A DNA stretch of 64,000 nt from an uncultured Oscillospiraceae bacterium (GTDB lineage Bacteria; Bacillota; Clostridia; Saccharofermentanales; UBA5734), in NCBI GenBank assembly GCA_964450865.1, contig CAYVHB010000014.1:2676-66675 (forward strand), read 5' to 3'. Position numbers and translations under genes: made by a program. The notes under the pieces are model-generated. The model was given only the letters and a program-made list of their open reading frames with translations, was not told where the DNA came from and ran no database searches. Each line of letters opens with the position of its first letter. Positions within the stretch are counted from its first letter, which is position 1. Of the stretch, positions 5,177-23,575 are shown in pieces.

Positions 5177-5215
5177 AATGACCCGGGCTGCCGCATCGGC
5201 AACCGGGTCATTTTT
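5177..5215 (+). terminator. Rho-independent terminator
   Basis: AATGACCCG...CGGGTCATT stem followed by T-run. Confidence 0.65.
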
Positions 5216-5227
5216 GCCCGTTTTCAT

Positions 5228-5298: not shown

Positions 5299-5324
5299 AT
5301 ATTCAGTAATGGAGGAATTGAACG

Positions 5325-7652: not shown

Positions 7653-9913
7653 TGGCTGCCGGCCTGAAGAAGGAACTCATCCTTGATAACCTGGATTGTG
7701 CAAATTGTGCCGCGCGGATCGAAAAAGCAGTCCAGGACATTGATGGCGTCACGGATGCCGTGGTTGATTTCACAACCAGAAAGCTCAGCTTCGAGATTAC
7801 GCATCCCGCCAGGCAAGCGCCTATCATGCGCGCTGTTACCGCGGCCGCTTTGCAGATCGAATCGGGACTGGAGATTTCGGAATCCGCGGCAGCCAGGCCA
7901 AAACCGGAGCCGGACAATCTGATCAAGCTGATCGCGCCCGCGAAAATGATCCGGCTGGGCCTGGGCCTTGTTTTATTCGTCCTGGGCCTGGCCTTCCAGT
8001 TTACCGAATGGATCGAGCTGGCGATATTTCTTGCCAGTTATGTGCTGATTGGCGGCGATGTCCTGCTGCGGGCCGTCCGCAATATCATCAGGGGCCAGGT
8101 TTTTGATGAGAGCTTCCTGATGAGTATTGCCACGCTTGGCGCCTTTGCGATTCGTGAATTCCCCGAAGCAGTCGCAGTCATGCTGTTTTATGAAGTGGGT
8201 GAGCTTTTTGAAAAGCTGGCGGTTGGCCGTTCCCGGCGCTCGATCAGCGCCCTGCTGGATATCCGGCCCGATTATGCCAATCTGCAAACAGGCGACACGA
8301 TCCGGCAAGTCTCACCGGAGGCCGTGCAGATTGGCGACCGGATTGTCATCAAACCAGGCGAGAAGGTCCCGCTTGACGGGTTAATTGTCGAGGGGACCTC
8401 GCTGCTGGACCTGTCTTCGCTAACCGGTGAATCCGTTCCTCGTTACGTAAAGCCGGGCGACGCGGTCTATTCAGGTTCGATCAATAGAAACGGCTTATTT
8501 TTCGTTGAAGTAACCAGGGCCTATCAGGATTCAACCGTCGCGAAAATCCTTGACCTGGTGCAGCATGCCAGCAGTAAAAAAGCCCCGACTGAAAAGTTCA
8601 TCACGAGCTTTGCCCGTTACTATACGCCGGCGGTTGTCATCATTGCCCTGGCCCTCGCGGTCATTCCACCGCTGGTCTGGCCGGGCACAGCCTTCGCGGA
8701 CTGGCTTTACCGGGCGCTGATATTCCTGGTTGTTTCTTGCCCCTGCGCCCTGGTCATTTCGATTCCCCTCGGCTACTTCGGCGGCATCGGCGGCGCATCC
8801 AGGCATGGCATCCTGATCAAGGGCAGCAACTACCTCGAAGCATTGAAAAATGTCGATACGATCGTCTTTGACAAGACTGGCACGTTAACCCGGGGTGTTT
8901 TCAAGGTAACCCGGATTCACAGCCGGCTGGCTGCGGACCAGGATTTGCTGGAAGTAGCAGCTTATGCGGAAAGTTATTCCAATCACCCGATTGCCCAGTC
9001 GATCCTGCTGGCCTATGGGCGCGAGATCAGAAAGGAACGGATTTCCAGCTATGACGAGATCCCCGGCCATGGCATCCAGGCCGTTATTGACGGCAGAACG
9101 GTCCTGGCCGGCAGCAGCCGGTTCCTGCAATCTTCAGGTGTTACGGTCGACGATCCTGTTGCGGCGGCCGCCGATTCTGTAGAATCAGGGACGATCGTTC
9201 ATTTCGCCATTGACCAGCATCATGCCGGCTATATCGTTATTGCCGATGAAATCAAAGCCGACGCGGCCCGGGCGATCAGTGAGCTCAAGGCGCTCGGCAT
9301 CCGGAAGACCGTCATGCTGACCGGTGACAGCAGGCTGGCGGGCGAGCAGATCGCCGCGCGGCTGGGCCTGGATGAGGTCTACGCCGAGCTGCTGCCCGAC
9401 CAGAAAGTCCAGCAATTTGAGCAGCTGGAAAAGGCGAAAACAACCCGGGGCAAGCTGCTGTTTGTCGGCGATGGCATCAACGACTCACCGGTCCTGGCCC
9501 GTTCGGACGTTGGCATTGCGATGGGCGGCCTGGGCTCGGATGCGGCCATTGAGGCGGCCGATGTTGTGATCATGACCGACCAGCCGTCAAAAGTTGGCGA
9601 GGCGATTCGGCTTGCCCGCAAAACCAGCCGGATTGTCCGCCAGAATATCGCCCTGGCCCTCGTGGTGAAGGTTAGCGTATTATTAATGGGTGCCGGTGGT
9701 ATAGCGTCGATGTGGGAGGCGGTCTTCGCTGACATGGGTGTGGCCTTGATCGCAATTTTTAATGCGATGCGGATCCTGAACGGGCCAAAGAACGGACCAA
9801 AGAATAAATCGAAAAACGAATCAAAAAACGAATCGAAGAACGAATCGAAAAATGAATCGAAAAATGAATCGAAAAATGAATCGAAAAATGAATCGCAAAA
9901 ACGGGCCGGATAA
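7652..9913 (+). CDS. cadA: Cd/Zn/Pb-translocating P1B-type ATPase (CadA/ZntA)
   Basis: HMA LDCANC, LTGES, CPC, DKTGTLT, SNHP, GDGINDSP. RBS GGAAGGGA before ATG 7652 (alternative 7646). Confidence 0.92.
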   Translation: MAAGLKKELILDNLDCANCAARIEKAVQDIDGVTDAVVDFTTRKLSFEITHPARQAPIMRAVTAAALQIESGLEISESAAARPKPEPDNLIKLIAPAKMIRLGLGLVLFVLGLAFQFTEWIELAIFLASYVLIGGDVLLRAVRNIIRGQVFDESFLMSIATLGAFAIREFPEAVAVMLFYEVGELFEKLAVGRSRRSISALLDIRPDYANLQTGDTIRQVSPEAVQIGDRIVIKPGEKVPLDGLIVEGTSLLDLSSLTGESVPRYVKPGDAVYSGSINRNGLFFVEVTRAYQDSTVAKILDLVQHASSKKAPTEKFITSFARYYTPAVVIIALALAVIPPLVWPGTAFADWLYRALIFLVVSCPCALVISIPLGYFGGIGGASRHGILIKGSNYLEALKNVDTIVFDKTGTLTRGVFKVTRIHSRLAADQDLLEVAAYAESYSNHPIAQSILLAYGREIRKERISSYDEIPGHGIQAVIDGRTVLAGSSRFLQSSGVTVDDPVAAAADSVESGTIVHFAIDQHHAGYIVIADEIKADAARAISELKALGIRKTVMLTGDSRLAGEQIAARLGLDEVYAELLPDQKVQQFEQLEKAKTTRGKLLFVGDGINDSPVLARSDVGIAMGGLGSDAAIEAADVVIMTDQPSKVGEAIRLARKTSRIVRQNIALALVVKVSVLLMGAGGIASMWEAVFADMGVALIAIFNAMRILNGPKNGPKNKSKNESKNESKNESKNESKNESKNESKNESQKRAG

Positions 9914-9973: not shown

Positions 9974-10534
9974 ATGCGTGCCTATATTGATCCGCCGGGA
10001 AAATTCCCCTTGTTTTTAAGGTTTGGGATCTGGATTGCCGAGAAGATTACTGGCAAAAAGATGCTGGTCGCCAGGCTCTTGTCCTGGTATCCGCGAGCCG
10101 CGCTTGGTTCGGCTGTCCTGGAATCACTCGTCACCCATCACGATAAAATGATTGATGAGCGCATGCTCAAACTGCTGCGCATGCAAGCTTCTTTTGCTAC
10201 AGCCTGTCCGTTTTGTATGGATATGAATTCATTCGAATATGAAAAACTCAAGATCACGGCCCAGGAGTATTCTGCCTTGAAGAAACAAGGTCCGCTGGCC
10301 GGCATTGACACATTCAGTGAGCGGGAAAAGCTGGCCATTGAGTACGCCAGGCTGATTTCGCAGACGCCGCTGGGGATCACGGAGGATTTCATGCAGTCCT
10401 TGCGAACGGTGTTTCAGGAACGGGAAATTGTCATTCTGGCGACTACGGTAGCCCAGGTCAATTACTGGGCCAGGCTGTGCTCGGCTTTGGGCGTACCGCC
10501 GGCCGGGTTTACCGAAACCTGCAAGCTGGATTGA
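9974..10534 (+). CDS. Carboxymuconolactone decarboxylase / AhpD family protein
   Basis: KLLRMQAS..TACPFCMDMN CxxC motif; FSEREKLAIEYA...VAQVNYWAR. Alternative start GTG 9965. Confidence 0.8.
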   Translation: MRAYIDPPGKFPLFLRFGIWIAEKITGKKMLVARLLSWYPRAALGSAVLESLVTHHDKMIDERMLKLLRMQASFATACPFCMDMNSFEYEKLKITAQEYSALKKQGPLAGIDTFSEREKLAIEYARLISQTPLGITEDFMQSLRTVFQEREIVILATTVAQVNYWARLCSALGVPPAGFTETCKLD

Positions 10535-10672
10535 TTGCAAGCTGGCGTACGCGTGCCGCCAGTCGGGTTTAACGGATCTGCAAGTCGCTCTGTGACACCG
10601 AATCAACTGCTTCAGCGTGCTGTGCTGGTGAGGATGGATCGAAGATTGCGCTGCCCCCCCCCCGCCGCACGC

Positions 10673-10708
10673 AAAAAAACCGCTGAAGCCTGCAGCTGCA
10701 GCGGTTTT
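10673..10708 (-). terminator. Rho-independent terminator downstream of tRNA-Ser
   Basis: AAAACCGCTG/CAGCGGTTTT stem with an A7 run (U-tract on the minus strand). Confidence 0.75.
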
Positions 10709-10712
10709 CTGG

Positions 10713-10803
10713 TGGCGGAGAGAGTGGGATTTGAACCCACGGTAGACTCTCATCTACGCCGGTTTTCAAGACCGGTGCCATCAGCCAGCTCGACCATCTC
10801 TCC
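10713..10803 (-). tRNA. tRNA-Ser (anticodon UGA), CCA encoded
   Basis: Reverse complement GGAGAGATGGTCGAGCTGG...CCGGT-CTTGAAA-ACCGG, long variable arm, GGGTTCAAATCCC, TCTCTCC-G-CCA. Confidence 0.97.
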
Positions 10804-11034
10804 GTGATAGAATTTGCGAATGGCCCTCTTTCCCTCGTGCGTTGTGCGCACAATAGCCAATGAATCTGCCTGACCGGGTTGCCTGAGCCTGACTTCGCGT
10901 TGATAGTCTACATGAATCGAGTCTGAAAGTCAATGTGAATGAAACCCAAAATAAAGCTGGCCCGGCTGGCGATTCTTGACGGGTCAGCTTTGTTTTATCA
11001 GGATTTAAATAGAACCGGTTGCGGCAATGCCGTT

Positions 11035-11337
11035 TTATTCGATGGTCATGAAGTCGGCAAAGCCGGTGACGTCAAAGATCTCCTTGATGGTTTCGCTGCA
11101 GCCGGTAATTTTCATGGTGGTACCGATGGCGTTGACCTTCTTCTGGGCGGAGAGCAGGACGCGCAGGCCGGAGCTGCTGATGTATTCCAGATCGGCCAGG
11201 GCAAAGACCAGGTGGAAGCGGTCCTGCTCGTAGACCTTTTTCAGTTCTGCTTCCAGTTCGGGTGAGGTAATGGTGTCCAGGCGTCCGGTCAGGGCGAACA
11301 TAATGACGTCGTTTTCCTGGGTTTTGTTAATTTTCAT
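11035..11337 (-). CDS. STAS-domain anti-sigma factor antagonist
   Basis: LTGRLDT..SPELE...LEYISSSGLRVLL...IFDVTGF, with the phosphoacceptor Ser motif intact. Confidence 0.92.
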   Translation of the reverse strand: MKINKTQENDVIMFALTGRLDTITSPELEAELKKVYEQDRFHLVFALADLEYISSSGLRVLLSAQKKVNAIGTTMKITGCSETIKEIFDVTGFADFMTIE

Positions 11338-11362
11338 GGTCTGAACCTCCTCAATATTATCG

Positions 11363-11416
11363 CTGTCGGCATGTATGCAAGGATAAGGTCAGTCTGTCGG
11401 CATGTATGCAAGGATA
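11363..11416. repeat. 23-bp exact direct repeat (31-bp period) between the RsbW-like gene and the STAS gene
   Basis: CTGTCGGCATGTATGCAAGGATA at 11363-11385 and 11394-11416. Confidence 0.9.
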
Positions 11417-11505
11417 GGGCGGATACCTGTCATCTGGCGGCTGCATATTCAGCCAGCGGGCAGTGCGTTCGCTGCACTCGGGTCAGGGCGTCTGCAGGGG
11501 CTTGG

Positions 11506-12114
11506 TCAGAAGGCTTTCTTGACGATCATTTCCACACCGCCAGCCGTAACGGTGACCACGACGTCGTCAGCAAAGCGCTCGATGATTGATTTCTCCAGAC
11601 CGGTAGCCTCAAGGTCGGCCGCCCGCTCTTCAGCGGGTGCTTCCTGATTGTAAAGGGCCATGGACCAGGTCAGGGACGAACGCATCACCGGCATATAGGC
11701 TGCGCCCATGAAGCCATAGGCCATGGTCGAATAGAGCTCGGGCGTGTCAACCAGGGTGGGATCTGCCGCGAATAAACCGGCAAACAGATAGCTGATCTTG
11801 TTCTTGAGGCCTTTGGGCGGGGTGCTGCGCTTGGCCGACGAGACGGCGATGAAAGCCTCGCGGGCTGTCTCCGTCACGGAAGCCTTGACGGTTATGTGGA
11901 TATCAAATGCATTGTCAGTGCGTTCGAGCCAGAACAGTCCTTCGCTCTGCTTGAGAACATCCGTTGTCATCGCGATCGATTCTTCGGCCAGCAGGCGCAG
12001 GATATTGGTGTTCTTTGTATTAAGACCACAATAAACAGCGGCGCGTTCGACTTCGTCCAGGATATTGGCGATTACCTGCACATCCGCGCTGACAGGAAAG
12101 AGATCTGTTTTCAT
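11506..12114 (-). CDS. Hypothetical protein, degenerate RsbW/anti-sigma-like HATPase fold (inferred)
   Basis: LRLLAEESIAM resembles the N-box helix. C-term GLEKSIIERFADDVVVTVTAGGVEMIVKKAF resembles the RsbW C-terminus. Co-oriented with the STAS gene. Confidence 0.6.
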   Translation of the reverse strand: MKTDLFPVSADVQVIANILDEVERAAVYCGLNTKNTNILRLLAEESIAMTTDVLKQSEGLFWLERTDNAFDIHITVKASVTETAREAFIAVSSAKRSTPPKGLKNKISYLFAGLFAADPTLVDTPELYSTMAYGFMGAAYMPVMRSSLTWSMALYNQEAPAEERAADLEATGLEKSIIERFADDVVVTVTAGGVEMIVKKAF

Positions 12115-12357
12115 GAAGCCTCCTCATAGTTTGTTTTTGTTCGTTTTCCATCAGGCCGGGCCCGACCCAGCCTGGTTTTACCGTTATTATACCAGTTAAA
12201 TAGACTGATCGGATCTATTCTACTCTTTTCTGGGCTTACCGGCAAGGTAGGGTGATGAATTCCATGAATTTTGTGATATAACTCTGTACAAAAGCCTGTA
12301 AATCAGCATATAATCTACCTGAATAACCACAAAGGATTCATCACTTGCGGAGGATTT

Positions 12358-13212
12358 ATGGTGAAACTGCCCGGATTGACTTCCCTGGTGCTTGTACTGC
12401 TGATTGTTACCCTGGTCTTGCCGCTGGCCGCTTGTGGCGGCAATAAGGGACCGGTTGCACCGCTGGATGTCACCGATTTGCGCGGCCATCGCATCGGGGT
12501 CCTGATGGCCTGGAGCCCGGACTATATTCTTGAGGATTATGGCGGCATTGACCTGGTCCGCTTTGACGGTCTCAGTGATGCCCTGCTGGCCTTGAAGTAT
12601 CGGCGGATCGAGGCTTTTGCTATGGATACCATCGATGCCAAGTACCTGTGCAGCGTCCAGCCTGGTTACCAGATGCAGGAAACCCCCGTCGGGATGGACC
12701 GCTATGTCACCTTTGTCAATAATAACCGCACCGATCTCCTGGTGCAGTTCAATGAATTTGCCGCCGGATTCATGAATAGTGATGAATACCGTGACCTGCA
12801 TGAGCGGGTCATGAATGTCGATAACGGCGAGTTTGTCAACAATGATATCCCGGCCCATACCGAGGGGCCGCTGATCAACGTCGCCATTGACGCGGCCGCG
12901 ATGCCTTACACCTCCTATGACTTTGCATCGGACCGTTATATTGGCAGCGACGTCGAGGTGATCCAGATGTTTGCCTGGCAGTATGGTTACCGGCTAAATT
13001 TTATCGACAGTGATTATAATGGTTCGGTCATGAATCTGACGTCCGGCAAGGCCGACCTGTTTATCTGTGCCCTGTCGGAGGCTTATCGTTTTGAGGTGGA
13101 ATTGACCCATAAAGCGCTGGTCAGTGATCCATATTTTTCGACGTCGATCCTGCTCGTCGGGATGGGTGACCGCACGGCAATGAGCTTTGATAATCCGGAC
13201 CTCGGCTACTGA
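12358..13212 (+). CDS. Polar amino-acid ABC substrate-binding lipoprotein (SBP_bac_3), circularly permuted
   Basis: Lipobox LAAC. The GlnH C-half motifs (DLRGHRIGV, KYRRIEAFAMD) precede the N-half motifs (VAID...PY...GSDVEV...GKADL...SDPY). Confidence 0.85.
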   Translation: MVKLPGLTSLVLVLLIVTLVLPLAACGGNKGPVAPLDVTDLRGHRIGVLMAWSPDYILEDYGGIDLVRFDGLSDALLALKYRRIEAFAMDTIDAKYLCSVQPGYQMQETPVGMDRYVTFVNNNRTDLLVQFNEFAAGFMNSDEYRDLHERVMNVDNGEFVNNDIPAHTEGPLINVAIDAAAMPYTSYDFASDRYIGSDVEVIQMFAWQYGYRLNFIDSDYNGSVMNLTSGKADLFICALSEAYRFEVELTHKALVSDPYFSTSILLVGMGDRTAMSFDNPDLGY

Positions 13213-13290
13213 GGCCCAAAGGGCACCCTGTATGAGATTTTAACCGCAAGTAACCCCAAGCCACATACCATGTACTAGGAGGAGATATGG

Positions 13291-13989
13291 ATGGACTCGT
13301 TTTTCAAGTATCTGAATGACCTGTTGTATGCCAGCCTGATCTATGAAAATCGCTACCTGTTCTTGCTGAAAGGGCTGGGCAATACGCTGCTCCTGACGGT
13401 TTTTTCCTTCCTGCTCGGCACCTTGTTCGGCTGCCTGTTTACGCTGGGCAATCTGCGCGGCGGCAAACTCGTCCGCAAGCTGCTGCAGGTGCTGACGCAG
13501 TTCCTGGTGCGCATTCCCAGCCTGGTCCTGCTGATGGTTTTCTCCTATATTATTTTCGCCGAGGTCAACATGAGCGGCCTGATCCTGGCCATCCTGGCTT
13601 TTACGATGAAAACCGCGTCTTATATGAGCGATATTTTTACCTCGGCGATCCAGTCCCTTGATTCGGGCGAGGTCGAGGCGGCCCGTTCGCTGGGCTTCTC
13701 CAAGCTGAAGGCCTTTTTCTATATTACGTTGCCCCAGGCGGTGCAGGTGGCCCTGCCGGTGTACAAGAACCAGTTCATCACGACGCTGCAGGAGACTTCG
13801 ATTGTTGGTTTCCTGGCCATCCAGGACCTGACCCGGGCCAGCAATATCATCGCCAGCCGGACCCTGGATCCCTTTATTTCCCTGATCATTGTCTCGGTGG
13901 CCTACCTGACCATCGGCTGGGTGACGAATCTGCTGCTATCGCTCCTGGAACGCTCCCACCATATCAGTCCTGCGGAGGTTGCTGCATGA
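13291..13989 (+). CDS. Amino-acid ABC transporter permease (HisM/GlnP family)
   Basis: LLKGLGNTL, EAARSLG EAA loop, ITLPQA, LQETSIVGFLAIQDLTR. Confidence 0.92.
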   Translation: MDSFFKYLNDLLYASLIYENRYLFLLKGLGNTLLLTVFSFLLGTLFGCLFTLGNLRGGKLVRKLLQVLTQFLVRIPSLVLLMVFSYIIFAEVNMSGLILAILAFTMKTASYMSDIFTSAIQSLDSGEVEAARSLGFSKLKAFFYITLPQAVQVALPVYKNQFITTLQETSIVGFLAIQDLTRASNIIASRTLDPFISLIIVSVAYLTIGWVTNLLLSLLERSHHISPAEVAA

Positions 13990-15068
13990 TCCAGTTGAAG
14001 AATCTGGCCAAGTCGTTTGGTACTAATGTCATTTTCCAGAACGTGAATTATGAGATCAAGAAAGGCGACGCCGTGGTCATTATTGGCCCGTCCGGCTGTG
14101 GCAAGAGCACCATGCTGCGCTGTATCAATGGCCTGGAGAAGCCTACGGGCGGCGAGGTCTGGGTGAACAACCAGAACATCGCCGATCCGAAGGTGGCCAT
14201 TGACAAGATTCGCAGCAAGATGGGGATGGTTTACCAGTCCTTCAACTTGTTCAGCCACAAGAATGTCCTCGAGAACGTGATCGCCGCGCCCATGCTTGTC
14301 AATCGCCTGGGCCGCAAGGAAGCGATTGCCGAGGCCATGCAATATCTGCGGCTGGTCGGAATGGAGAACCGCGCGTTTCATATGCCCAACCAGCTGTCCG
14401 GCGGTCAGAAACAGCGGGTGGCGATTGCCCGTTGCCTGGCGATGCATCCGGAGGTCATTTTATTCGATGAGCCAACGTCCGCGCTCGATCCGACGATGGT
14501 CGACGAGGTGCTCGGCGTTATCCAGCGCCTGATCAAGGACAAGATGACCTGCGTGATTGTCACCCATGAGATGTCCTTTGCCCAGAAAGTAGCCACCCAG
14601 GTTATTTACCTGGATGACAGGGGCATCTACGAAACGGGCACGGCCGAGCAGATCTTTGCCCGGCCGCAGCGGGAGAAGACCCAGGCGTTCATTCACAAGC
14701 TGCGGGTCTTTGAGCGGACGATTACACCGGTCAATGCTGACCTGTACAGTTTCATGACGGAGGTTCGCTCCTATTGCGCCCAATATGGCTTTACCAATCG
14801 CCAGCTTGATACAGTCAACCTGATTTATGAGGAGCTGATTTATCCGCTGGTTGCGGATCTGGCACGGAATAAGGCTATTATCTTCCGTTTGCGCTGCAAT
14901 ACGGCCGGGGAGATGATCGAGGTAATATTGACCGATCCGCGGGCGGCCGGCGACTGGCTGACGGCCGAAGGGGTCGACGAGCTGGGCGTAAAAATTATCC
15001 GCAGCATGGCTAGGGAAATGGAATCGACGCTGAAAGACGGTGTGGCCGAGCTGCGGATGCTGCTGTAA
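13986..15068 (+). CDS. Amino-acid ABC ATPase (GlnQ-like) fused to a C-terminal RsbW-like domain
   Basis: GPSGCGKST, LSGGQKQR, ILFDEPTSALD, VTHEM. About 120 extra residues: VNLIYEELI...VILTD...DELGVKIIRSMA. Confidence 0.9.
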   Translation: MIQLKNLAKSFGTNVIFQNVNYEIKKGDAVVIIGPSGCGKSTMLRCINGLEKPTGGEVWVNNQNIADPKVAIDKIRSKMGMVYQSFNLFSHKNVLENVIAAPMLVNRLGRKEAIAEAMQYLRLVGMENRAFHMPNQLSGGQKQRVAIARCLAMHPEVILFDEPTSALDPTMVDEVLGVIQRLIKDKMTCVIVTHEMSFAQKVATQVIYLDDRGIYETGTAEQIFARPQREKTQAFIHKLRVFERTITPVNADLYSFMTEVRSYCAQYGFTNRQLDTVNLIYEELIYPLVADLARNKAIIFRLRCNTAGEMIEVILTDPRAAGDWLTAEGVDELGVKIIRSMAREMESTLKDGVAELRMLL

Positions 15069-15083
15069 GCTGGAAGTAAGCGG

Positions 15084-17417
15084 GTGAAAAAAGTGAAAAC
15101 GCCGGCGAAATCAGATGTCCTGATTGTACGACTACTGTCCCGGACCGTATGCCTGGCCCTGGTCCTGGCCTTGCTGCTGGCCGCACCGCTGGCCCTCGGT
15201 GGCTGTGCCCTGCAGCCGGCGGCCAAAGTGACGCTGGGCAGTGTCTATGACATGAACGCTGACAATTATATTATTGGTGTGCCGCAGGGCGCGGCGTCGA
15301 TGGTGGCCGTGGAAGCAGCCTTTCCCAAGGCCAGGATCGAGTATTTCCAGAGCAACCACGACGGTTACCTGGCCGTTCGCTCAGGCAAGATCGACGCTTA
15401 TGCCTATGACAAGGATCAGATGACCTTTGCCGCCGCCAACCTCGGCGATGTGGAGCTGCTGGATGAGGTGATCCATTCCACCCCCGTGGTGGCGGGGATC
15501 AATCCCCAGCGGACTGATCTGGTGGATCCGGTCAATGCCTTTATTGCCCAGATCAAGGCTGATGGCACTTATGCTGACATGTTCGACCGCTGGGTGACGA
15601 AAGCGACCGGGGTATTGCCCAGCATCCCTGATCCGGCCAGTCCGGTCGGGACTTTGCGCGTCGGTACAGCCGGAACGGTTGAGCCTTTCAGCTACTATGA
15701 CAAGAATCAGCAGCTTTGCGGCTTTGATATTGAGCTGATCCGGCGCCTGGCCCTGTTCATGAATGTGCGTGTTGAGCTGACCGCCCTGGATTTCGGGCCG
15801 ATGCTGGCCGCCCTGGAGGCCGGCAAGCTTGACCTGGTTATTTCCAATCTGCACGATCAGCAGCAAGTCCGGGATATTGTCCTGCTGTCTGATCCGTATA
15901 ATGTCTCGCGGACGGTGATGATGGTCAAAAAGGGCCGCTTCCAGCTGGCCGCCGGCATTCGCAGCATTGCCCAGCTGGCCGGCAAGCAAGTCGGGGTGCT
16001 GACCGGCAACATGCTCGACCAGATCCTGGCCAAGAGTGTGCCATCGGCCGTGCCGGTTTATTTCAATACCTATCCGGACCAGATCACGGCGATCAAGACT
16101 GGCCGCATTGACGCGATGATCCTGGACACGCCGATTGCTGTCCTGTATGCCGCCAATTCCGAGGGCGTATCACTGGTCCAGGAAAAAATGCAGAGTGATG
16201 ACTATGCCCTGGCCCTGAAGCTGGAGAACCAGGCGCTGTATGCCAAAGTCGACGCCGTTGTCGCGGCCCTGAAGGCTGACGGCACGCTGGACCAGATGGC
16301 GAAAAAATGGCTGGAAGGGCCAGCGGAGCAGAAAGTGCTGCCAGACCTGCCCCTGTCCGGCGCGAATGGCACCTTGCGCTTTGGCACCAGTTCCCTGACG
16401 GAGCCGTTTGCGTATCTCAATATCCAGAACCAGATCATCGGCTTCGATGTCGAACTGGCGCGGCGGATTGCCAGTGAGCTGGGCATGAACCTGGAAATTG
16501 TCGACATGGATTTCGCGGCCCTGATCCCGGCCTTGCAGTCCGGCAAGGCCGACATGATTGGTTCCTGTATCACCGTTACCCCGGAACGGTCCAAAATGGT
16601 GCACTTTACCCCCAGTTACTACGCCGGCGGTATCTCGGCGATTGTGGCCGCCCCCTCTGCTGGCAATACCGGTAATGGTAACGGCCAGTCCGGCCCGGCT
16701 GGCTTGAGTTTTTACCAGCGCCTGATCAATAGCTTCAACCGGACTTTTGTGATCGAGTCGCGCTATAAGCTGATCCTGCAGGGTCTGTGGGTGACGGTCC
16801 TGATCTCGGTTATGGCCGCGATCATCGGTTCGATCCTTGGTTTCCTGCTCAGCCTGATGCGCCGCTCCCGCAACAAATGGGCTAGTATCCCGGCCCGGAT
16901 CTACATCAAGGCCATGCAAGGCACGCCGATTGTCGTCCTGCTGCTGATTCTGTATTACATTATTTTCGGGAAAGTCAACATCAGTGCCATTGTCGTGGCC
17001 ATTCTGGCTTTTGCCCTGAACCTGGCCGCCTATGCCGCGGAAATCATCCGTTCCGGGATCGAGGCGGTGGACCGGGGACAGATCGAGGCTGCCAGTGCCC
17101 TGGGCTTTACAAAACTCCAGGTTTTTACACGCATCACCTTTCCCCAGGCCGCCCGTTATATCCTGCCTGTTTTCAAGGGGGAATTGGTTACGACGATCAA
17201 GATGACTTCGGTGGTCGGGTATATAGCGATCCAGGACCTGACGAAAATGAGCGACATCATCCGCAGCCGGACCTATGAAGCGTTCTTCCCGCTGATTGCG
17301 ACCGCGCTGATCTATTTCCTGGTGGCCGCTGCGCTGACATCGCTGCTGACCCGCCTGGAGTTCCGGATTGATCCGAAACGGCGCAAGCGGGCCATCAAGG
17401 GGGTGAGCAGCCGATGA
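15084..17417 (+). CDS. Lipoprotein with two tandem permuted SBP_bac_3 domains fused to an amino-acid ABC permease
   Basis: LALGGC lipobox; two copies of KADGT...W followed by LRxGT...EPFxY...GFD(I/V)EL. C-terminal permease with EAASALG and ITFPQA. Confidence 0.9.
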   Translation: MKKVKTPAKSDVLIVRLLSRTVCLALVLALLLAAPLALGGCALQPAAKVTLGSVYDMNADNYIIGVPQGAASMVAVEAAFPKARIEYFQSNHDGYLAVRSGKIDAYAYDKDQMTFAAANLGDVELLDEVIHSTPVVAGINPQRTDLVDPVNAFIAQIKADGTYADMFDRWVTKATGVLPSIPDPASPVGTLRVGTAGTVEPFSYYDKNQQLCGFDIELIRRLALFMNVRVELTALDFGPMLAALEAGKLDLVISNLHDQQQVRDIVLLSDPYNVSRTVMMVKKGRFQLAAGIRSIAQLAGKQVGVLTGNMLDQILAKSVPSAVPVYFNTYPDQITAIKTGRIDAMILDTPIAVLYAANSEGVSLVQEKMQSDDYALALKLENQALYAKVDAVVAALKADGTLDQMAKKWLEGPAEQKVLPDLPLSGANGTLRFGTSSLTEPFAYLNIQNQIIGFDVELARRIASELGMNLEIVDMDFAALIPALQSGKADMIGSCITVTPERSKMVHFTPSYYAGGISAIVAAPSAGNTGNGNGQSGPAGLSFYQRLINSFNRTFVIESRYKLILQGLWVTVLISVMAAIIGSILGFLLSLMRRSRNKWASIPARIYIKAMQGTPIVVLLLILYYIIFGKVNISAIVVAILAFALNLAAYAAEIIRSGIEAVDRGQIEAASALGFTKLQVFTRITFPQAARYILPVFKGELVTTIKMTSVVGYIAIQDLTKMSDIIRSRTYEAFFPLIATALIYFLVAAALTSLLTRLEFRIDPKRRKRAIKGVSSR

Positions 17418-18580
17418 AGATCCAGGTATCCCATCTGGTCAAGCAGTTTGGTTCAAATGTTGTGCTCAAGGATGTGAATGTCGAGATCGGCCGTGGCGAG
17501 ATTGTCTCGATCATTGGGCCGTCGGGGACCGGCAAAAGCACGCTGTTGCGCTGTATCAATCTGCTTGAGACGCCCTCAGGCGGTTCGATCCAGATTGATG
17601 GCGTCGATCTCCAGGCGCGCGGGACCAATATCCATAAGCTGCGCCAGAAAATGGGCATGGTTTTCCAGTCGTTCAACCTCTTCGCCCATCTGATGGTGAT
17701 TGAGAATATCATGCTCGGCCCGCTTGATCTGCTGAAAATGCCACCACAGACAGCCTATAATGAGGCGATGCAGCTGCTGGGCCAGGTTGGCCTGATCGAC
17801 AAGGCCCTCGCCTATCCGGATGAGCTTTCCGGCGGCCAGAAGCAGCGGGTGGCCATCGCCCGGGCCCTGGCGATGCATCCGGAGATCATCCTGCTCGATG
17901 AGCCGACCAGCGCCCTGGATCCGACGATGATTGGCGAGGTTCTGGCCGTGCTGCGCAATCTGGCCCGGGCCGGCCTGGCCATGATCATCGTTACCCATGA
18001 AATGAAATTTGCGGCAGAAATATCAACACGGGTCCTGTACATGGACGAGGGAATTATCTACGAGGACGGACCGCCGGCCCAGATTTTCCAGCATCCGCAA
18101 CGGGAGAAAACCCGGGCTTTTGTTAAGCGGATCAAGAGCTTTACGACGGAGATCCGCTCGCGGACCTTTGACTTTTACGGTCTTGTGTCCCAGATCGAGG
18201 ACTTTGGCCGGCGCCAGATCCTGGAGCTGCACCAGATTCATGACATCCAGCTGGTCCTTGAGGAACTGGTTGTTTTGCAGCTGCTGCCGCACCAGACCGG
18301 GAGCGAGCCGTATGTCAAGATCAATGTCAGTCACGTGGAAAGCAGCGGCGATATTGAGATCTCGCTGAATTATGGCGGACCGGCCTGGAATCCGCTGGCG
18401 TCCATGACGACTGAGCCGGCCGCCAGCCCAGCCGCCGCGGAGCCGGCCGCCAGCCCAGCCGCTGCGGAGCCTGGCGACGACCTGTCGCTACGGCTTTTGC
18501 GGCATAAGATCAAGACAGCCAGCTATTCTTATGCTGAAGCCGACGGAATGAACACGCTGCTCATCCTGATCCGGGGCTGA
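17414..18580 (+). CDS. Second amino-acid ABC ATPase (GlnQ-like) fused to a C-terminal RsbW-like domain
   Basis: GPSGTGKST, LSGGQKQR, LLDEPTSALD. C-term DIQLVLEELV...ISLNYGGPAWNPL...SYSYAEADGMNTLLI. 27-bp duplication at 18413-18466 (EPAASPAAA x2). Confidence 0.9.
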   Translation: MKIQVSHLVKQFGSNVVLKDVNVEIGRGEIVSIIGPSGTGKSTLLRCINLLETPSGGSIQIDGVDLQARGTNIHKLRQKMGMVFQSFNLFAHLMVIENIMLGPLDLLKMPPQTAYNEAMQLLGQVGLIDKALAYPDELSGGQKQRVAIARALAMHPEIILLDEPTSALDPTMIGEVLAVLRNLARAGLAMIIVTHEMKFAAEISTRVLYMDEGIIYEDGPPAQIFQHPQREKTRAFVKRIKSFTTEIRSRTFDFYGLVSQIEDFGRRQILELHQIHDIQLVLEELVVLQLLPHQTGSEPYVKINVSHVESSGDIEISLNYGGPAWNPLASMTTEPAASPAAAEPAASPAAAEPGDDLSLRLLRHKIKTASYSYAEADGMNTLLILIRG

Positions 18581-18638
18581 TCGGGCAAGAGAATATCCGG
18601 ATCGGCCAGCCGGTACAAGCACCCTCCCTGGCCAGGCC

Positions 18639-19427
18639 TCACAGGCCGAGCAGGCGGCGGGCGTTGCCATCGAAAATGGCGGCCTTTTCCATGTCGGTCA
18701 GCGGCAAATGCCGAAGCAGGCGCTGTTCCAGGGCTGGTACGCTCCATGGTGCGTCACTGCCATACAGGATGCGGCCGACGCCGTGATTGCGGATGATGCG
18801 GGTAGCCAGTGGCAGGGGGATATTGGCAAAGCTATAGGACGTATCCAGGTAGACGGGCTTGCCGACGAGCTCGCGTTCGACTTCTTCCCAGAGCATGTAG
18901 CCGCCAAAATGGGCTGCAACGACCGGCGCGCCGGCAAAGCAGGGGAGAATCCGTGCCAGGGCCCGTGGCCGGGAACGGCCCGGGACATCGAATCCGATAT
19001 CCAGTCCGGCGTGAAAGACCGTGATGAAACCCATTTCGGCGATCAGCTGATAAATGGGCAGCATCGCCGGATCGTCGACCTCAAAATTCTGGTATTCGGG
19101 ATGGAATTTGATCCCCTTGATGCCGGCTTCGCGCAACATATGCAATTGTTCGAGAATATTGGCTGACTGGGGATGAATGGAACCGAAGAAGAACAGATTA
19201 TCCGTATTGTTCTCGATGGCGAAGCGATTGACGGACGTCTCCTGCCCGGGTCGGGTCGCGATAGAAAGGACAACACCAAAGTCAACACCGTCACGCTGCA
19301 ACAGGTTCTTCAGCCCCTGGACCGTGCCATCAAAACACGACTCCATACCGCCGCTTTTATGAGAAAGCGTCGCCAGGGCGCGCTCAGCCAGCTGGTCAGG
19401 GAAAGCATGCAGGTGGAAATCGATCAT
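18639..19427 (-). CDS. Amidohydrolase_2 family metal-dependent hydrolase
   Basis: IDFHLH, GIKFHP, VFHAG, VAAHFG, YLDTS, LYGSDAPW. Confidence 0.85.
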   Translation of the reverse strand: MIDFHLHAFPDQLAERALATLSHKSGGMESCFDGTVQGLKNLLQRDGVDFGVVLSIATRPGQETSVNRFAIENNTDNLFFFGSIHPQSANILEQLHMLREAGIKGIKFHPEYQNFEVDDPAMLPIYQLIAEMGFITVFHAGLDIGFDVPGRSRPRALARILPCFAGAPVVAAHFGGYMLWEEVERELVGKPVYLDTSYSFANIPLPLATRIIRNHGVGRILYGSDAPWSVPALEQRLLRHLPLTDMEKAAIFDGNARRLLGL

Positions 19428-19624
19428 AAGTGCCTCCTGGTATGGCCGGGTTCCATCGTCCTTGGGCTACAGGAACCGGGTCAAGATTTCAGAACAAGAT
19501 TGAGAACAAGATTGATGGTCACGGCTGGCGCATGACAGGCGAACACGCTCAGCAGTCACGGCCTGAATAGATCAATATTCTAATCGTATCCGGTGCAAAT
19601 GACAATGAATTCGCGAGGTTTGTT

Positions 19625-19945
19625 ATGGGTATTTTTTATCAGGTGACAGATGGCCTGGTCACGATATTTCTCGGCGAACGCCTGGATATGGCCCAGTCCG
19701 CTGAATTTGAAGCTGAATTGGATACCTGCCTGCCCTTGGTTCGTCAGGGACTTTGCCTGGATTGCTCGCGTCTGGTATATTTGAGCAGTGCGGGCTTGCG
19801 GGTCATTTTGAAGGGAGCCCGGCTGATGAAGGCTGCCAGTCAGCCCTACCAGATGACGCAAGTGCAAGACGATGTCTATAAGGTTCTGAACCTGTCCGGA
19901 TTTACCCAGATCGTCAGGATCAGCCGGCAGACTCAAACCGATTGA
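19625..19945 (+). CDS. STAS-domain anti-sigma factor antagonist
   Basis: LGERLD...LDCSRLVYLSSAGLRVIL...VLNLSGF. Confidence 0.9.
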   Translation: MGIFYQVTDGLVTIFLGERLDMAQSAEFEAELDTCLPLVRQGLCLDCSRLVYLSSAGLRVILKGARLMKAASQPYQMTQVQDDVYKVLNLSGFTQIVRISRQTQTD

Positions 19946-20083
19946 CGGATGGTGCGGCTGTGGCTGAAGAGACCGATACAGACACCGCCGGATTAATGAT
20001 CAGGTATGGCCGGATCAATTTAATGATCAGGTTGTATCTATTATAACAGCGGTTCACAGCAGCGATCATGGGTGAGGGGCTTT

Positions 20084-21721
20084 ATGCTGATTAACGAAAG
20101 CTGGCAGCCGGTTGCGGCGACAGATGGCATCGAAATTTATCCATTCATCAGAAAACCCAATTTTTCCTGTTCCAATTCGTTTGTTTTATCGACGGATCAG
20201 TGGATCATTCTGATCGATCCGGGTGCCGATGCTGGCCAGATGAGTAAAATACGTCAGACTGTCAGCCAGGCCCTGGCGGCCCGGCCTCGTCCGGTCCTGG
20301 TCCTGCTGACCCATTGTCACGTCGACCACTGGGTGGCCGCTTTTGCTGATCCGCTTTTTCGCCAGCTGGGCGAGGTCAGAATCGCCGCCCATCAGCAGGG
20401 TGCGGCTTATATCATGGATAAAAACAAGGTCATGACCATGTCAGACCTGGCCGGCCTGCCGCTGCCGGACGCAATCGTTGATCTGCCATTGTTTGCCAGT
20501 CAGCCAGGTCCGCCCCATCGCCTGGCCCTGGCCATCGGCTCCCGGGATATTGCACTGATTGATCCCATGCCGGGACACAGCCCGGACAGTATATGTATCC
20601 AGATTGGCAACCTGCTTTTTGCCGGGGACTTCTTTTTCGCCCTTGATTATCTGATCGCCGGCCTCAATGGCTGGGATCGTGATGCCATGGGGCAATCCAT
20701 CGAGCGGATGCAGGAGCTGGCCCGGCAAGATCAGATCGGACTATTCTGTACCGGCCACGGCAATCCCTTTCCAGCCGCCGATGCCAGGCTGATCCTGCAA
20801 AAAATGCAGCGGCAGATAACCCGGATGCCGGTTTTACCCGAATTGAATATGCAGCATATCCGGACCTCGGCCGCCTATGCCGTGGAGATGATGAATGAGC
20901 TGCATGATACCATGGCGGTTATGACCGGGCGGCTGTATGCCCTGAGTTATTATCTGGAGATGCTCGGTGAAGAGGTGCGTTCAGCGAAATACACCGCACA
21001 GCTTGATACAGCCGCCCTGGATGATCTCGTGCAGACCTATCAGGAATTCGCCGAGCGTTACACCACTGGTGATCTGATCGATTTTCACCTGCTCAAAAAG
21101 GTTGGTCAGATCATCGCGAAAATGGAGCGTTTATTGTCAGGCCAGCAAGGGGAAAGCATCATCGATGCAAGGTTACTCCAGCGGCTCTCGTGGACATTTG
21201 GCGATTTTATCAAGGCAACCGGGGGTATGCCCCTGGAGGTTATCGGCGAGGATACCGATCTGGATAGCCTGGTGGCTGATCTGTTGCAATCACTGCAGAG
21301 AAAGGCCGATCCTGGGCAAATGATGGCCGCGCTGGACAGCGAGACACAGTTTGTGGATGGGCTGGTGAACCGGCTGGCTGACGCGACCCTATTCCGGAAA
21401 GTCAAGCTGGATTTTAAGGCGGCTGGCAGATTGCCCGCTGTCAACTTGCATCGGGCCCGGTTCCGCGATGCCCTGAGCGGCCTGCTCGAGGAAATCGCCG
21501 CGCTTGACACCCGCCGGATTGAGCTGCAAACCCGGATTGCCGACGGCACCCCGGCAGCAGTCTGGCTGACGGTGAGCAGCCCCGATGGTATGGATGAGGC
21601 CGCGCTCAATGCCCGGAAATGGCCGATGTATCAACGCAAATTTGCCTTGCAGGGCATCAGCCTGACCCTTGAGCAAGGGCAAAACGGCCAGGTCATACAC
21701 CTGGCCCTGCCAGTGAGCTGA
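20084..21721 (+). CDS. MBL-fold metallohydrolase fused to a degenerate histidine-kinase-like (HisKA/HATPase) region
   Basis: LIDPG, THCHVDH, PGHSPD, FAGD, GHG. Then NELHDTMAVMTG (H-box-like) and a HATPase-like C-terminus lacking N/G boxes. Alternative start GTG 20072. Confidence 0.75.
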   Translation: MLINESWQPVAATDGIEIYPFIRKPNFSCSNSFVLSTDQWIILIDPGADAGQMSKIRQTVSQALAARPRPVLVLLTHCHVDHWVAAFADPLFRQLGEVRIAAHQQGAAYIMDKNKVMTMSDLAGLPLPDAIVDLPLFASQPGPPHRLALAIGSRDIALIDPMPGHSPDSICIQIGNLLFAGDFFFALDYLIAGLNGWDRDAMGQSIERMQELARQDQIGLFCTGHGNPFPAADARLILQKMQRQITRMPVLPELNMQHIRTSAAYAVEMMNELHDTMAVMTGRLYALSYYLEMLGEEVRSAKYTAQLDTAALDDLVQTYQEFAERYTTGDLIDFHLLKKVGQIIAKMERLLSGQQGESIIDARLLQRLSWTFGDFIKATGGMPLEVIGEDTDLDSLVADLLQSLQRKADPGQMMAALDSETQFVDGLVNRLADATLFRKVKLDFKAAGRLPAVNLHRARFRDALSGLLEEIAALDTRRIELQTRIADGTPAAVWLTVSSPDGMDEAALNARKWPMYQRKFALQGISLTLEQGQNGQVIHLALPVS

Positions 21722-21766: not shown

Positions 21767-23575
21767 TCAGACCGGTTCGCCAGGGGTCACGAATTCCGGC
21801 TTCGGACTGCCGGACCCTTCCCTGTAGAAGACGCTGTGGCCGCTGGTTTTTTTCGCGGTGTACATGGCGTGATCGCTCTGGCGGATGATGCTCTCCAGGT
21901 CTTCGCCCGGCTCATAGCGGGAGACCCCGATACTGATGCCCGCTTCATAGGCTCGCGCATCAATCACGATCGGTTCACAAAATTGCCCGACTACCTGGTT
22001 GACAGTCTGGGAGATATCTCCCGTCTGGCGGTTGAGCCAGGTAAAGATCACGAACTCGTCTCCGCCATAACGGCAGACCAGGTCCCGCTCGTGAAAGCAG
22101 GCCTGGATGCGCCGGCTGGCCTCGATCAGGACGCCATCGCCGACGCCGTGGCCGTACTGGTCGTTGATAGCCTTGAATTTGTCCAGATCCATAAACAGGA
22201 TATAAAGCGCCTGACCGGGCGGGACGGATATGCCCTTGTCGAGGATGGCATTCAGGCAGAAGCGATTCTTGAGACCGGTCAGGGGATCGATGTTGATCGA
22301 CATCTCCAGCTGGTTCTTCTGTCGATAGGCGTCGAAGAAGTTCATCATCGTCAGATAGGAAAAGAGGATCAGCATATACAGGAATGCGTAGGGAATAAGG
22401 CTAAAATCCGGCTCGGTATACAGCTCATGCAAGACCGCCGGTATCACAACGGCATAGGACAGAAGCATCAGGACCGCGCCCTTGCGGTGCTGGCGCAACC
22501 CCTGAATCAGGATATAGGAGAAATAAACCAGGCTAAGCACGACCAGGTTGACAAAGTACGGGTATAGTCTGCCGTATACTGTATTGGGCGTGAACAGGGT
22601 CAGGAACACGATCGCCAGGATCAGGCCGCGTGCGCTCCATTTGATGGCCGCGTAGCGGGGCGTGAACTGCAGGTGAAAAAACATCAGGACCAGAACGGGT
22701 AATAGCAGGTAGCCGACCATGAACTCGATGCGGACCGCCAGATCCCAGGGCATTGTTGGCAGGTAATCATAAATCTGGCGATGACCGCGCACAATCACCC
22801 GCACCACCAGCAGGAAACAGGCAATGGAGAGGTGCAGTGAGGCGATGAAGTCGCGATTGACGGTAAAGGTGGACAGAAAAAACAGCCCCAGGACCAGGCT
22901 GAAGGTCAGCAGGAAAATTTCCAGGTTTTTCTGCGCGGTGACATGGGCGTTGAGCACGGATTCGGTTCCCAGCCGTATTGCTTTCCAGAAACCGCCATCC
23001 ATGTAGTCAAAGTTGGCAACCTCCAGCAGGAACAGGGCCTGGCCGTTCGCATCCGCGTGAAAATAGCCAGTCTGGCTGTGCCAGGCGGGTACGTAGTCCG
23101 CCTGGCGGTCAGCGACCGTGCCGTTTTCGATGATCAGTCTCCCGTTGATCAGCAGCCGGTAAGCGCTGGCCTGATCGAGAATATTGACTGCATAATGCGT
23201 GTCCGGATTGAGCCCGCTCACTCGCAGCCGGTAGGTGGCCACGCCGGTGACGCCACCGCCTGGTCCGGGCTGTCTCAGCCAGTGGTCGGGTACGGTGCGA
23301 TATTCGCTGGTCCGGGTGCCGGCCATATTGGCAATATCATTAATCCGCAGATTGGGGTAATATTGCCATTGACCGCCCAGTATGACGACGTCACGGCCGG
23401 GCCAGTTGCCCAGGTCAAGCTGGCCCGCTGTCGCCTGTACCGATCTGGATGTTGCTTCGAGATGAAGCGTCTGGCTGATGAGCATCGCTGCGGTTGCAAG
23501 CAAAATCAGTGCCAGGATCACCCAGGGCACGAGTCTGCTTGCTATTTGTGCGGTCGATCGGCTTGCGATTGGCAT
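21767..23575 (-). CDS. 7TM-DISM-type sensor diguanylate cyclase (GGDEF)
   Basis: Extracellular LGGQWQYYP...VPDHW...GVATYRL, multiple TM helices, DPLTGLKNR...MDLDKFKAIND.YGH..GD...RYGGDEF. Confidence 0.88.
   Translation of the reverse strand: MPIASRSTAQIASRLVPWVILALILLATAAMLISQTLHLEATSRSVQATAGQLDLGNWPGRDVVILGGQWQYYPNLRINDIANMAGTRTSEYRTVPDHWLRQPGPGGGVTGVATYRLRVSGLNPDTHYAVNILDQASAYRLLINGRLIIENGTVADRQADYVPAWHSQTGYFHADANGQALFLLEVANFDYMDGGFWKAIRLGTESVLNAHVTAQKNLEIFLLTFSLVLGLFFLSTFTVNRDFIASLHLSIACFLLVVRVIVRGHRQIYDYLPTMPWDLAVRIEFMVGYLLLPVLVLMFFHLQFTPRYAAIKWSARGLILAIVFLTLFTPNTVYGRLYPYFVNLVVLSLVYFSYILIQGLRQHRKGAVLMLLSYAVVIPAVLHELYTEPDFSLIPYAFLYMLILFSYLTMMNFFDAYRQKNQLEMSINIDPLTGLKNRFCLNAILDKGISVPPGQALYILFMDLDKFKAINDQYGHGVGDGVLIEASRRIQACFHERDLVCRYGGDEFVIFTWLNRQTGDISQTVNQVVGQFCEPIVIDARAYEAGISIGVSRYEPGEDLESIIRQSDHAMYTAKKTSGHSVFYREGSGSPKPEFVTPGEPV

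Follow-up and report, generated by a model that had tools for sequence, protein, structure and literature searches.

Partner switching is textbook control of sigma factors, and few outputs of any other kind are known for it. The Bacillus switches SpoIIAA-SpoIIAB-SpoIIE and RsbV-RsbW-RsbU/P consist of the same three types of part that recur in this account, i.e., a STAS protein with a phospho-acceptor serine, a HATPase_c_2 kinase and a SpoIIE-family PP2C phosphatase, and RsbW-fold proteins bind their STAS partners. A similar logic of STAS protein, kinase and PP2C also operates without a sigma factor in SypE-SypA of Vibrio fischeri, HsbR-HsbA of Pseudomonas, BtrU/V/W of Bordetella and SiaABCD of P. 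aeruginosa, and the STAS protein MlaB binds and regulates MlaF, the ATPase of an ATP-binding cassette (ABC) transporter. Our subject is a locus at positions 11035-21721 of a 64,000-nucleotide stretch of DNA (the window) from an uncultured Oscillospiraceae bacterium (contig CAYVHB010000014.1). The window encodes two polar-amino-acid-type (PAAT-type) ABC importers whose ATPases each end in a tail predicted to have the RsbW fold, and a signalling switch known for the control of sigma factors probably controls a transporter directly in systems of this kind.

The genes of the region were annotated by listing open reading frames (ORFs) and scanning them against Pfam and NCBIfam. The five ABC genes on the plus strand form one block in the ORF listing (12358-18580), and the genes most relevant to the argument are as follows.

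11035..11337 (-): STAS-A, a single-domain STAS protein of 100 aa (PF01740 E 3e-19, TIGR00377 E 1e-21; motif LEYISSSGLRVLL)
11506..12114 (-): ORF2, 202 aa, of a small family with six homolog clusters (P0121-P0126); co-oriented with STAS-A and upstream of it
12358..13212 (+): circularly permuted family-3 solute-binding lipoprotein, 284 aa (SBP_bac_3), the first gene of the ABC operon
13291..13989 (+): polar amino-acid-type ABC permease, 232 aa (BPD_transp_1 E 4e-21, HEQRo_perm_3TM)
13986..15068 (+): ATPase 1, 360 aa, with a GlnQ/TcyN-like nucleotide-binding domain at aa 1-238 (ABC_tran E 1e-37)
14703-15065 (+): putative RsbW-like pseudokinase tail of ATPase 1, aa 240-360 (Pfam, AlphaFold, Foldseek)
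15084..17417 (+): fusion of two permuted binding domains and a permease, 777 aa (SBP_bac_3 in three stretches, BPD_transp_1)
17414..18580 (+): ATPase 2, 388 aa, with a GlnQ/TcyN-like nucleotide-binding domain (ABC_tran E 8e-38)
18134-18577 (+): putative RsbW-like pseudokinase tail of ATPase 2, aa 241-388, with a low-complexity Pro/Ala insert (hhalign, phmmer)

All parts of an importer were matched within this one operon (SBP_bac_3; BPD_transp_1 and TIGR01726, the HEQRo-type permease; ABC_tran). The best NCBIfam models of both ATPases are GlnQ/TcyN, at scores under the equivalog cut-offs, and a substrate is not assignable from them.

The ATPase Tails

Both ATPases continue past a nucleotide-binding domain of ~238 aa, by 122 aa in ATPase 1 and 148 aa in ATPase 2, and neither C-terminal extension has a Pfam match above threshold. 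Tail 1 matches HATPase_c_2 (PF13581) at E 0.017 over profile positions 9-125 of 127, with 15.5 bits against a gathering cut-off of 27.4, and tail 2 does not match that model at E 0.1. Homologs of ~360 aa that cover the tail fall into more than 100 clusters, one of them with a precomputed HATPase_c_2 match, and 13 of 27 aligned homologous tails matched the model at E <= 1 (best 6.5e-7). BLASTP between both tails and ORF2 was uninformative and a word-index search with tail 1 alone found nothing; since searches with the tails alone failed, full-length homologs and profiles were required. A profile of the tails returned only noise from the PDB sequences, and the evidence on the fold comes from AlphaFold and Foldseek.

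The AlphaFold model of tail 1, with the 27-tail alignment as input, reached a predicted local distance difference test score (pLDDT) of 91 and a predicted TM-score (pTM) of 0.85, and its top 20 Foldseek matches in the PDB were all RsbW, SpoIIAB, UsfX or the RsbW domain of Rv1364c (TM 0.52-0.74, E down to 6.5e-7). The ACT, TOBE and CBS folds were ruled out by their absence among the PDB matches listed. Tail 2 belongs with the tail family (hhalign 97.7%, E 1.7e-12), and in a phmmer search of the window ORFs it was matched by the stand-alone RsbW-type kinase of a relative, L011 (E 1.2e-8; L numbers denote loci and contigs other than the window). The hidden Markov model of the tails in turn matches this L011 kinase at E 1e-11, and stand-alone kinases, used as the starting set of an iterative search, led to all of the tails. 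Both tails are thus taken to be RsbW-type GHKL domains, i.e., the Bergerat alpha/beta sandwich. An earlier, sequence-only reading of this DNA had seen two GlnQ ATPases each fused to an RsbW-like domain and had asked whether the tails would fold as GHKL or as ACT, TOBE or CBS domains; the fusions were borne out by AlphaFold and Foldseek for tail 1 and by hhalign and phmmer for tail 2, and Foldseek returned the RsbW type of GHKL.

The sites at which such a domain would bind ATP have been altered. Stand-alone kinases have an N-box of the form EExxxN, a G1 motif DxG and a G2 motif GGLG, whereas the tails retain the EE of the N-box with its Asn mostly gone, have mostly lost the Asp of G1, and have D[DEN][LI][GSA] at G2. 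In the window the three motifs read EELIYPLVA / TDPRAAGDW / DELG in tail 1 and EELVVLQLL / NYGGPAWNP / DDLS in tail 2, so that neither has the Asn of the N-box, the Asp of G1 or the glycines of G2. Three residues of the tail, D252, E283 and D331, are invariant. From these motifs, the tails appear to be catalytically dead pseudokinases of the RsbW/SpoIIAB type.

Linkage of Tailed ATPases to Switch Genes

The tail domain is found in hundreds of proteins annotated as ‘amino acid ABC transporter ATP-binding proteins’ in Bacillota, Bacteroidota and other phyla. An alignment of the tail only was too divergent for a metagenome scan, but one of the junction plus tail worked: 491 of its first 600 pattern matches were confirmed as relatives, which makes the family of tailed ATPases a large one. 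With this alignment, 80 tailed-ATPase loci were fetched from metagenomes, and 76 tail-less GlnQ loci, obtained by scanning genome contigs with a full-length alignment (which picked generic ABC motifs), served as the control. Six-frame ORFs of the loci were searched iteratively for STAS, PP2C and RsbW-like domains.

A STAS gene was present in 24 of the 80 tailed loci and in one of the 76 tail-less GlnQ loci (Fisher's exact p = 2.8e-7). PP2C genes were found in 10/80 and 0/76, respectively, and stand-alone RsbW-type kinases in 8/80 and 0/76. Where at least 350 nt of downstream sequence was available, the STAS gene lay immediately downstream of the ATPase gene and on the same strand in 14 of 69 tailed loci; it sometimes overlaps the ATPase gene (L130) or sits between ABC genes (L105, L153). 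Switch-linked loci span at least 16 of the 37 tail clusters formed at 60% identity, and in representative linked loci SpoIIE, HATPase_c_2 and STAS all scored above the Pfam threshold. The linkage of STAS, PP2C and RsbW-type kinase genes to tailed ATPases is therefore strong, repeated and general, and not a local feature of the window; the co-occurrence of STAS genes with homologues elsewhere, which the sequence-only reading had proposed as a check, was confirmed by it.

Operons from many unrelated bacteria place parts of the switch beside a tailed ATPase. The order is PP2C, binding protein/permease, tailed ATPase and STAS in L143 and L155; PP2C, kinase, STAS, binding protein/permease and tailed ATPase in L149; tailed ATPase, STAS and kinase in L171; and tailed ATPase, STAS and binding protein/permease in L105 and L153. 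In L096 and L137 a STAS gene and a PP2C::HATPase_c_2 fusion are convergent on the ABC operon, and a Bacteroidota metagenome-assembled genome (L014) has in a row a HAMP-PP2C, a tailed ATPase, a stand-alone kinase and a fused binding protein and permease. Of 10 neighbouring ORFs that were scanned in six linked loci, none was a sigma-factor gene. The linked PP2Cs bear sensor domains of several kinds (dCache_1 with HAMP, receiver, cNMP-binding and 5TMR-LYT), and from this variety it follows that different signals would converge on the same STAS/tail output. The receiver-PP2C of L161 (1-3125) is preceded by a GAF histidine kinase and a response regulator, and the 5TMR-LYT PP2C is fused to a HATPase_c_2 kinase. 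Sensor-bearing PP2Cs are located at 4915-6918 in L143, 3532-5592 in L155, 13512-15545 in L173, 1-3125 in L161, 10568-11824 in L105 and 1389-3152 in L096.

Two further observations concern the proteins of these loci. The STAS frame follows the ATPase in-frame, with one stop codon between them, in L103 (1108-2598) and L105 (1187-2728), and there was no natural ATPase-STAS fusion among the 120 homologs listed. Proteins of 449-799 aa with STAS or degenerate RsbW-like domains are encoded near tailed ATPases at 4120-6516(-) and 15573-17378(-) in L173 and at 5978-7324(-) and 10477-12168(-) in L096.

STAS-A scored 69 bits on PF01740 (cut-off 22.6) and 76.7 bits on TIGR00377 (cut-off 53.45). STAS-B, a second STAS protein encoded downstream of the ABC block, passed on PF01740 with 35.9 bits and fell under the TIGR00377 cut-off with 43.2 bits. 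Their motifs are YISSSG and YLSSAG, and in both a serine aligns with Ser58 of SpoIIAA. That the locus has two STAS proteins with an intact phospho-acceptor motif, as read from the sequence beforehand, is thus upheld by the Pfam gathering thresholds and by the serine at the Ser58 position. The best matches of STAS-A in the fetched loci were the STAS genes that adjoin tailed ATPases (E 1e-27 to 1e-13), which all share the motif [LV][DE]Y[IL]SSAGLRV, and by sequence STAS-A is assigned to this tail-adjacent subtype. The phospho-acceptor serine is kept in every STAS protein encoded directly next to a tailed ATPase, and in all complete ones near tailed ATPases except that of L160.

The Window and Its Closest Relative

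The window itself has only part of such a system. Approximately 50 of its ORFs were scanned against Pfam, i.e., nearly all non-overlapping ORFs of at least 150 aa, and none of them was a sigma factor, PP2C or HATPase_c_2 gene; when proteins of the relatives were run by phmmer against all window ORFs of at least 50 aa, no sigma factor, PP2C or active RsbW kinase was found. The sequence-only reading had recognised neither a sigma factor nor a PP2C in the window, and both scans agree with it. The module is incomplete in cis, and with kinase and phosphatase absent from the window, STAS-A would be controlled by enzymes encoded elsewhere or would act constitutively.

Two metagenomic contigs that overlap, L011 and L004, cover the closest relative. 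Its genes for an ORF2 homolog, a STAS protein and a HATPase_c_2 kinase are followed, on the same strand, by three ABC sets, the ATPases of which are all tailed, and a HAMP-SpoIIE phosphatase lies ~6 kb upstream on the opposite strand. Two of the three ABC sets are orthologous to the five ABC genes of the window, at 63-78% identity (the 777-aa fusion is 65% identical to a 769-aa ortholog in L004). Compared with this relative, the window is without the kinase, the phosphatase and one transporter set, and its ORF2 and STAS-A genes are inverted next to the ABC operon. The window is thus best read as a reduced and rearranged version of this layout.

ORF2 had been taken, from the sequence alone, for a stand-alone RsbW-like protein, and this was not established. 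It has no Pfam or NCBIfam match, and its alignment to the RsbW-like domain (hhalign probability 63%, E 7e-5) needs an insert of ~70 aa at the ATP lid; at best, this hints at an RsbW-like fold that has degenerated strongly and has taken up a large insert. ORF2 stands upstream of a STAS gene only in the window and in L011, and homologs are found without STAS in L009 and L013. Synteny with L009, the contig of a relative, extends over 30818-37189 of the window, which encodes a GH4 glycosidase, an AraC regulator, TMEM164 and a condensation domain.

A Proposed Mechanism and Its Alternatives

Starting from what was observed, i.e., the identities of the domains, the loss of ATP-binding motifs and the linkage of the genes, we infer that STAS proteins would bind the tails, that binding would affect transport, and that the signal would flow from the switch to the transporter. 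In the mechanism we propose, the unphosphorylated STAS protein (STAS-A in the window) would bind the tail of the ATPase and alter the closure of the two nucleotide-binding domains, and transport would be switched after translation, either on or off. In complete systems a stand-alone and active paralog of the tail, the HATPase_c_2 serine kinase, would phosphorylate the STAS serine, and a sensor-bearing SpoIIE-family PP2C (dCache+HAMP, receiver, cNMP-binding or 5TMR-LYT) would remove the phosphate, so that the sensed signal would set the amount of STAS protein free to bind the transporter. The functions of kinase and docking site would thereby be split between two paralogs, and the transporter would be the output of a partner switch in which no sigma factor takes part. 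We lean, if only a little, towards the tail being the docking site of a partner-switching circuit in which STAS binding gates transport post-translationally. To the broader proposition, that the tailed ATPases mark a widespread and undescribed class of ABC importers gated by a partner switch, with the fused RsbW-like pseudokinase as the STAS receptor, we would give even chances.

Several observations weigh against gating by a STAS protein. STAS-A is divergent from the ABC operon, and the kinase and phosphatase are missing from all 64 kb (by the phmmer and Pfam scans); the cluster of the window's tail 1 is not switch-linked outside its own lineage. The tailed loci came from metagenomes and the control loci from genomes, i.e., from different collections. 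In L143, L155 and L105, PP2C and STAS genes occur without a stand-alone kinase for the STAS protein. Lastly, ~70% of the tailed loci, including 25 of the 35 that are at least 8 kb long, showed none of the three switch genes (STAS, PP2C, kinase) in the flanking sequence that was fetched, from which it follows that the tail may have a role independent of STAS, or that STAS acts in trans. This last point would fit the tail as an autonomous regulatory or dimerisation domain, serving perhaps in trans-inhibition by a ligand and binding no STAS protein, with the switch genes merely co-regulated or directed at another target. C-terminal regulatory domains are common on importer ATPases, and whole clusters of tails (the EEY[VI]T[NY]L group and the group of the window's tail 1) are not STAS-linked. 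Yet the nearest relatives of the tails are stand-alone kinases that adjoin STAS genes in the same operons, STAS is often the first gene after the ATPase, and the enrichment of STAS genes over tail-less GlnQ loci is strong; we consider a purely autonomous tail unlikely. The absence of a kinase from the L143, L155 and L105 operons would instead be explained if the tail were itself an active serine kinase that phosphorylates STAS, and the N-box Asn is indeed kept, as EExxVNxLL, in L103, L105, L128 and L153. In the tails of the window and of L143/L155, however, all three motifs are altered: the Asn of the N-box, the Asp of G1 and the glycines of G2 are gone, with acidic DD/DE in place of GGLG, and the Pfam score of the window tail (15.5 bits) is below the threshold (27.4). 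An active kinase was rejected on this loss of motifs and seems to us very improbable.

The signal might also run the other way, with the transporter as sensor: the tail would hold or release STAS according to the transport cycle or substrate load, and the freed STAS protein would signal elsewhere, e.g., to a kinase/anti-sigma pair or a diguanylate cyclase. The linkage described above is compatible with this arrangement as well, trigger transporters are established in MalK-MalT and BceAB-BceS, and the window encodes three GGDEF proteins, one of them directly after the gene of a metallo-beta-lactamase (MBL) fusion protein that follows STAS-B. Complete operons, on the other hand, have their own sensor-bearing PP2C (dCache+HAMP, receiver or cNMP), and no other output gene was found among the neighbours scanned (10 ORFs in six linked loci). 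For these two reasons the transporter as output is the simplest reading, and we regard a sensing transporter as quite unlikely. There is, finally, the matter of whether STAS-A and the importers are neighbours by chance, with STAS-A serving only ORF2, STAS-B serving only the MBL fusion and neither touching the transporter. The divergent orientation of STAS-A would suit this, as would the conservation of the ORF2-STAS order in L011 and of the STAS-B/MBL pair in places where there is no transporter. In the relative, however, the STAS-A ortholog is co-directional, in one block, with the kinase and the orthologous ABC genes; STAS-A is of the tail-adjacent subtype; and ORF2 homologs do without STAS in L009 and L013. 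Coincidence is, we believe, a far-fetched account of the proximity in this window.

STAS-B and the MBL Fusion Protein

For STAS-B a different assignment was reached, and two genes are involved.

19625..19945 (+): STAS-B, 106 aa (PF01740 E 7e-9 / PF13466; motif LVYLSSAGLRVIL)
20072..21721 (+): MBL-fold fusion protein (MBL549), 549 aa (Lactamase_B E 3e-12)

STAS genes lie directly upstream of an MBL549 homolog in L174 and L176, with no ABC transporter nearby (the pairs are at 19625-21721 in the window, 5641-7713 in L174 and 4668-6737 in L176). STAS-B is 42% identical to the L174 STAS protein (E 2.6e-29), to which it is far closer than to STAS-A. Because its orthologs pair with MBL-fusion homologues in loci free of transporters, synteny places STAS-B outside the transporter circuit, and STAS-B and the MBL fusion are best viewed, on this comparison, as a separate, conserved, two-gene STAS module that is independent of the transporter.

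MBL549 consists of an MBL domain (aa 1-250, with HxHxDH intact), a helical bundle (260-436) and a C-terminal alpha/beta domain (445-548). Lactamase_B scored 47 bits (cut-off 22.7), and the metal ligands H81, H83, D85, H86, H169, D186 and H229 are invariant across 30 homologs. The C-terminal 325 residues define a family with 182 representatives at 50% identity, nearly all of which are 550-590 aa long with the same layout of MBL domain and C-terminus. In the AlphaFold model (pLDDT 88) strands and helices follow one another at 445-548 as they would in a GHKL sandwich. Foldseek with the whole model returned MBL matches only, GloB and MBLs on top; profile searches against the PDB gave the C-terminus weak matches to histidine-kinase CA domains (E 0.12-0.15); a Pfam HATPase was found in none of the 30 homologs; and hhalign against the RsbW-like domains gave ~1%, a null result. 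The model is at most suggestive of a kinase-like C-terminus. The sequence-only reading had called this protein an MBL/pseudo-kinase fusion, of which the MBL half is secure, by the Lactamase_B match and the invariant HxHxDH, and the pseudo-kinase half was not established. It may be that the MBL domain stands in for a PP2C in the STAS-MBL module.

The overall claim of that reading, of amino-acid ABC import wired to a partner switch with no sigma factor, accordingly holds as a genomic association, while three of the parts it had drawn in call for correction: by synteny STAS-B is separate, and neither ORF2 nor the C-terminus of MBL549 is established as RsbW-like.

Other Features of the Window

The binding proteins of the operon had been described from the sequence as permuted, and they proved to be circularly permuted relative to SBP_bac_3. 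In the 284-aa protein the C-terminal half corresponds to the start of the profile (residues 173-271 match positions 1-94) and the N-terminal half to a later part of it (residues 38-92 match 121-176 of ArtJ), and the protein aligns in two registers to the 777-aa fusion (SSP777). A third circularly permuted family-3 solute-binding protein is encoded away from the locus, at 60355-61257(-).

Three more features adjoin or interrupt the genes listed so far.

10713-10803 (-): tRNA-Ser, directly beyond STAS-A (Rfam)
18639..19427 (-): Amidohydrolase_2 family protein, 262 aa (PF04909 E 6e-24), a neighbour that may or may not belong to the system
21767-23575 (-): 7TMR-DISM-GGDEF protein, directly after the MBL gene

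L164, also a tailed-ATPase locus, has one Amidohydrolase_2 homolog (E 2e-46). Within the window locus Rfam matched only the tRNA-Ser and gave no riboswitch or leader, and a scan of this locus for promoters and terminators did no better than on shuffled sequence. Besides the 7TMR-DISM-GGDEF protein, the window encodes a GGDEF protein at 26164-27336(-) and a PAS-GGDEF-HD protein at 53919-56096(-); if STAS signalling reaches cyclic di-GMP (c-di-GMP), the GGDEF proteins are possible downstream targets. At 6391-7518, upstream of the locus by a few kb, is an IS605-family OrfB/TnpB gene (OrfB_IS605, HTH, Cas12f1-like TNB domain). The 764-aa ORF at 7619-9913 has a translation that looks like a heavy-metal P-type ATPase, with a repeated (KNES)n end (NGPKNGPKNKSKNESKNES). 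An agmatine deiminase (PAD_porph) and a CN_hydrolase gene adjoin at 28216-30390(-), and look like a pair for making putrescine from agmatine.

Comparison with Known Systems

A full-text search of open-access papers and bioRxiv preprints, in which absence is not proof, turned up no account of ABC ATPases with a fused RsbW-like domain, nor any of amino-acid importer operons that include a partner switch. If the proposed gating is true, it would be the first case of partner switching that acts directly on a transporter; direct and reversible control of nutrient uptake would join the known outputs of partner switches, and the fold of an anti-sigma kinase would have been converted into a built-in regulatory domain. 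A function would thereby be assigned to a large and unannotated C-terminal domain, and extracellular sensing of the Cache type would be linked to transport via a phosphatase. The conserved pair of STAS and MBL genes may be a second STAS module, and one that has gone unstudied.

The tail shares its fold with RsbW and SpoIIAB of the Bacillus switches. The arrangement differs from those switches in the absence of a sigma factor and in the putative RsbW-like output partner, which is part of an ABC ATPase and no longer has the motifs for ATP binding, and the window itself lacks the kinase and phosphatase that they have. With the switches that work without sigma factors there is a further likeness in the sensor-linked PP2C, including the receiver-PP2C seen here in L161, but their outputs are biofilm, secretion or c-di-GMP enzymes, where here the output would be an ABC importer with a fused pseudokinase. 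Rv1364c and SypE-type proteins are precedents for building switch modules into larger proteins, as are the PP2C::HATPase_c_2 fusions in L096 and L137 among the loci here; such fusions join the parts of a switch to each other, whereas the tail is joined to a subunit of a transporter.

From the side of the transporters, MlaB-MlaF of the Mla lipid transporter likewise pairs a single-domain STAS protein with an ABC transporter, whose ATPase subunit is the known target there and the expected one here. The MlaB model (mlaB_1) gives STAS-A a weak score (E 5e-4, 20 bits against a cut-off of 90), and Pfam and NCBIfam found no Mla components in the locus, the transporter of which is an importer with binding proteins; a pair of the MlaB-MlaF type was ruled out on this sub-cut-off score and the lack of Mla partners. 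MlaB, moreover, binds the nucleotide-binding core of MlaF and is not known to be phospho-regulated, whereas here the STAS protein would probably dock on the RsbW-like domain and has, in complete operons, a kinase and a phosphatase encoded with it. In position, directly after the nucleotide-binding domain, the tail is the counterpart of the TOBE domain of MalK (with EIIAGlc/MalT), the NIL/ACT domain of MetN, the TOBE domain of ModC and the CBS domains of OpuAA/ProV. It would also share their expected logic, that of a cytoplasmic domain that gates the closure of the ATPase or binds a regulator. What would set it apart from TOBE, ACT and CBS domains is its fold, the GHKL/RsbW sandwich, and its presumed ligand, a protein regulated by phosphorylation.

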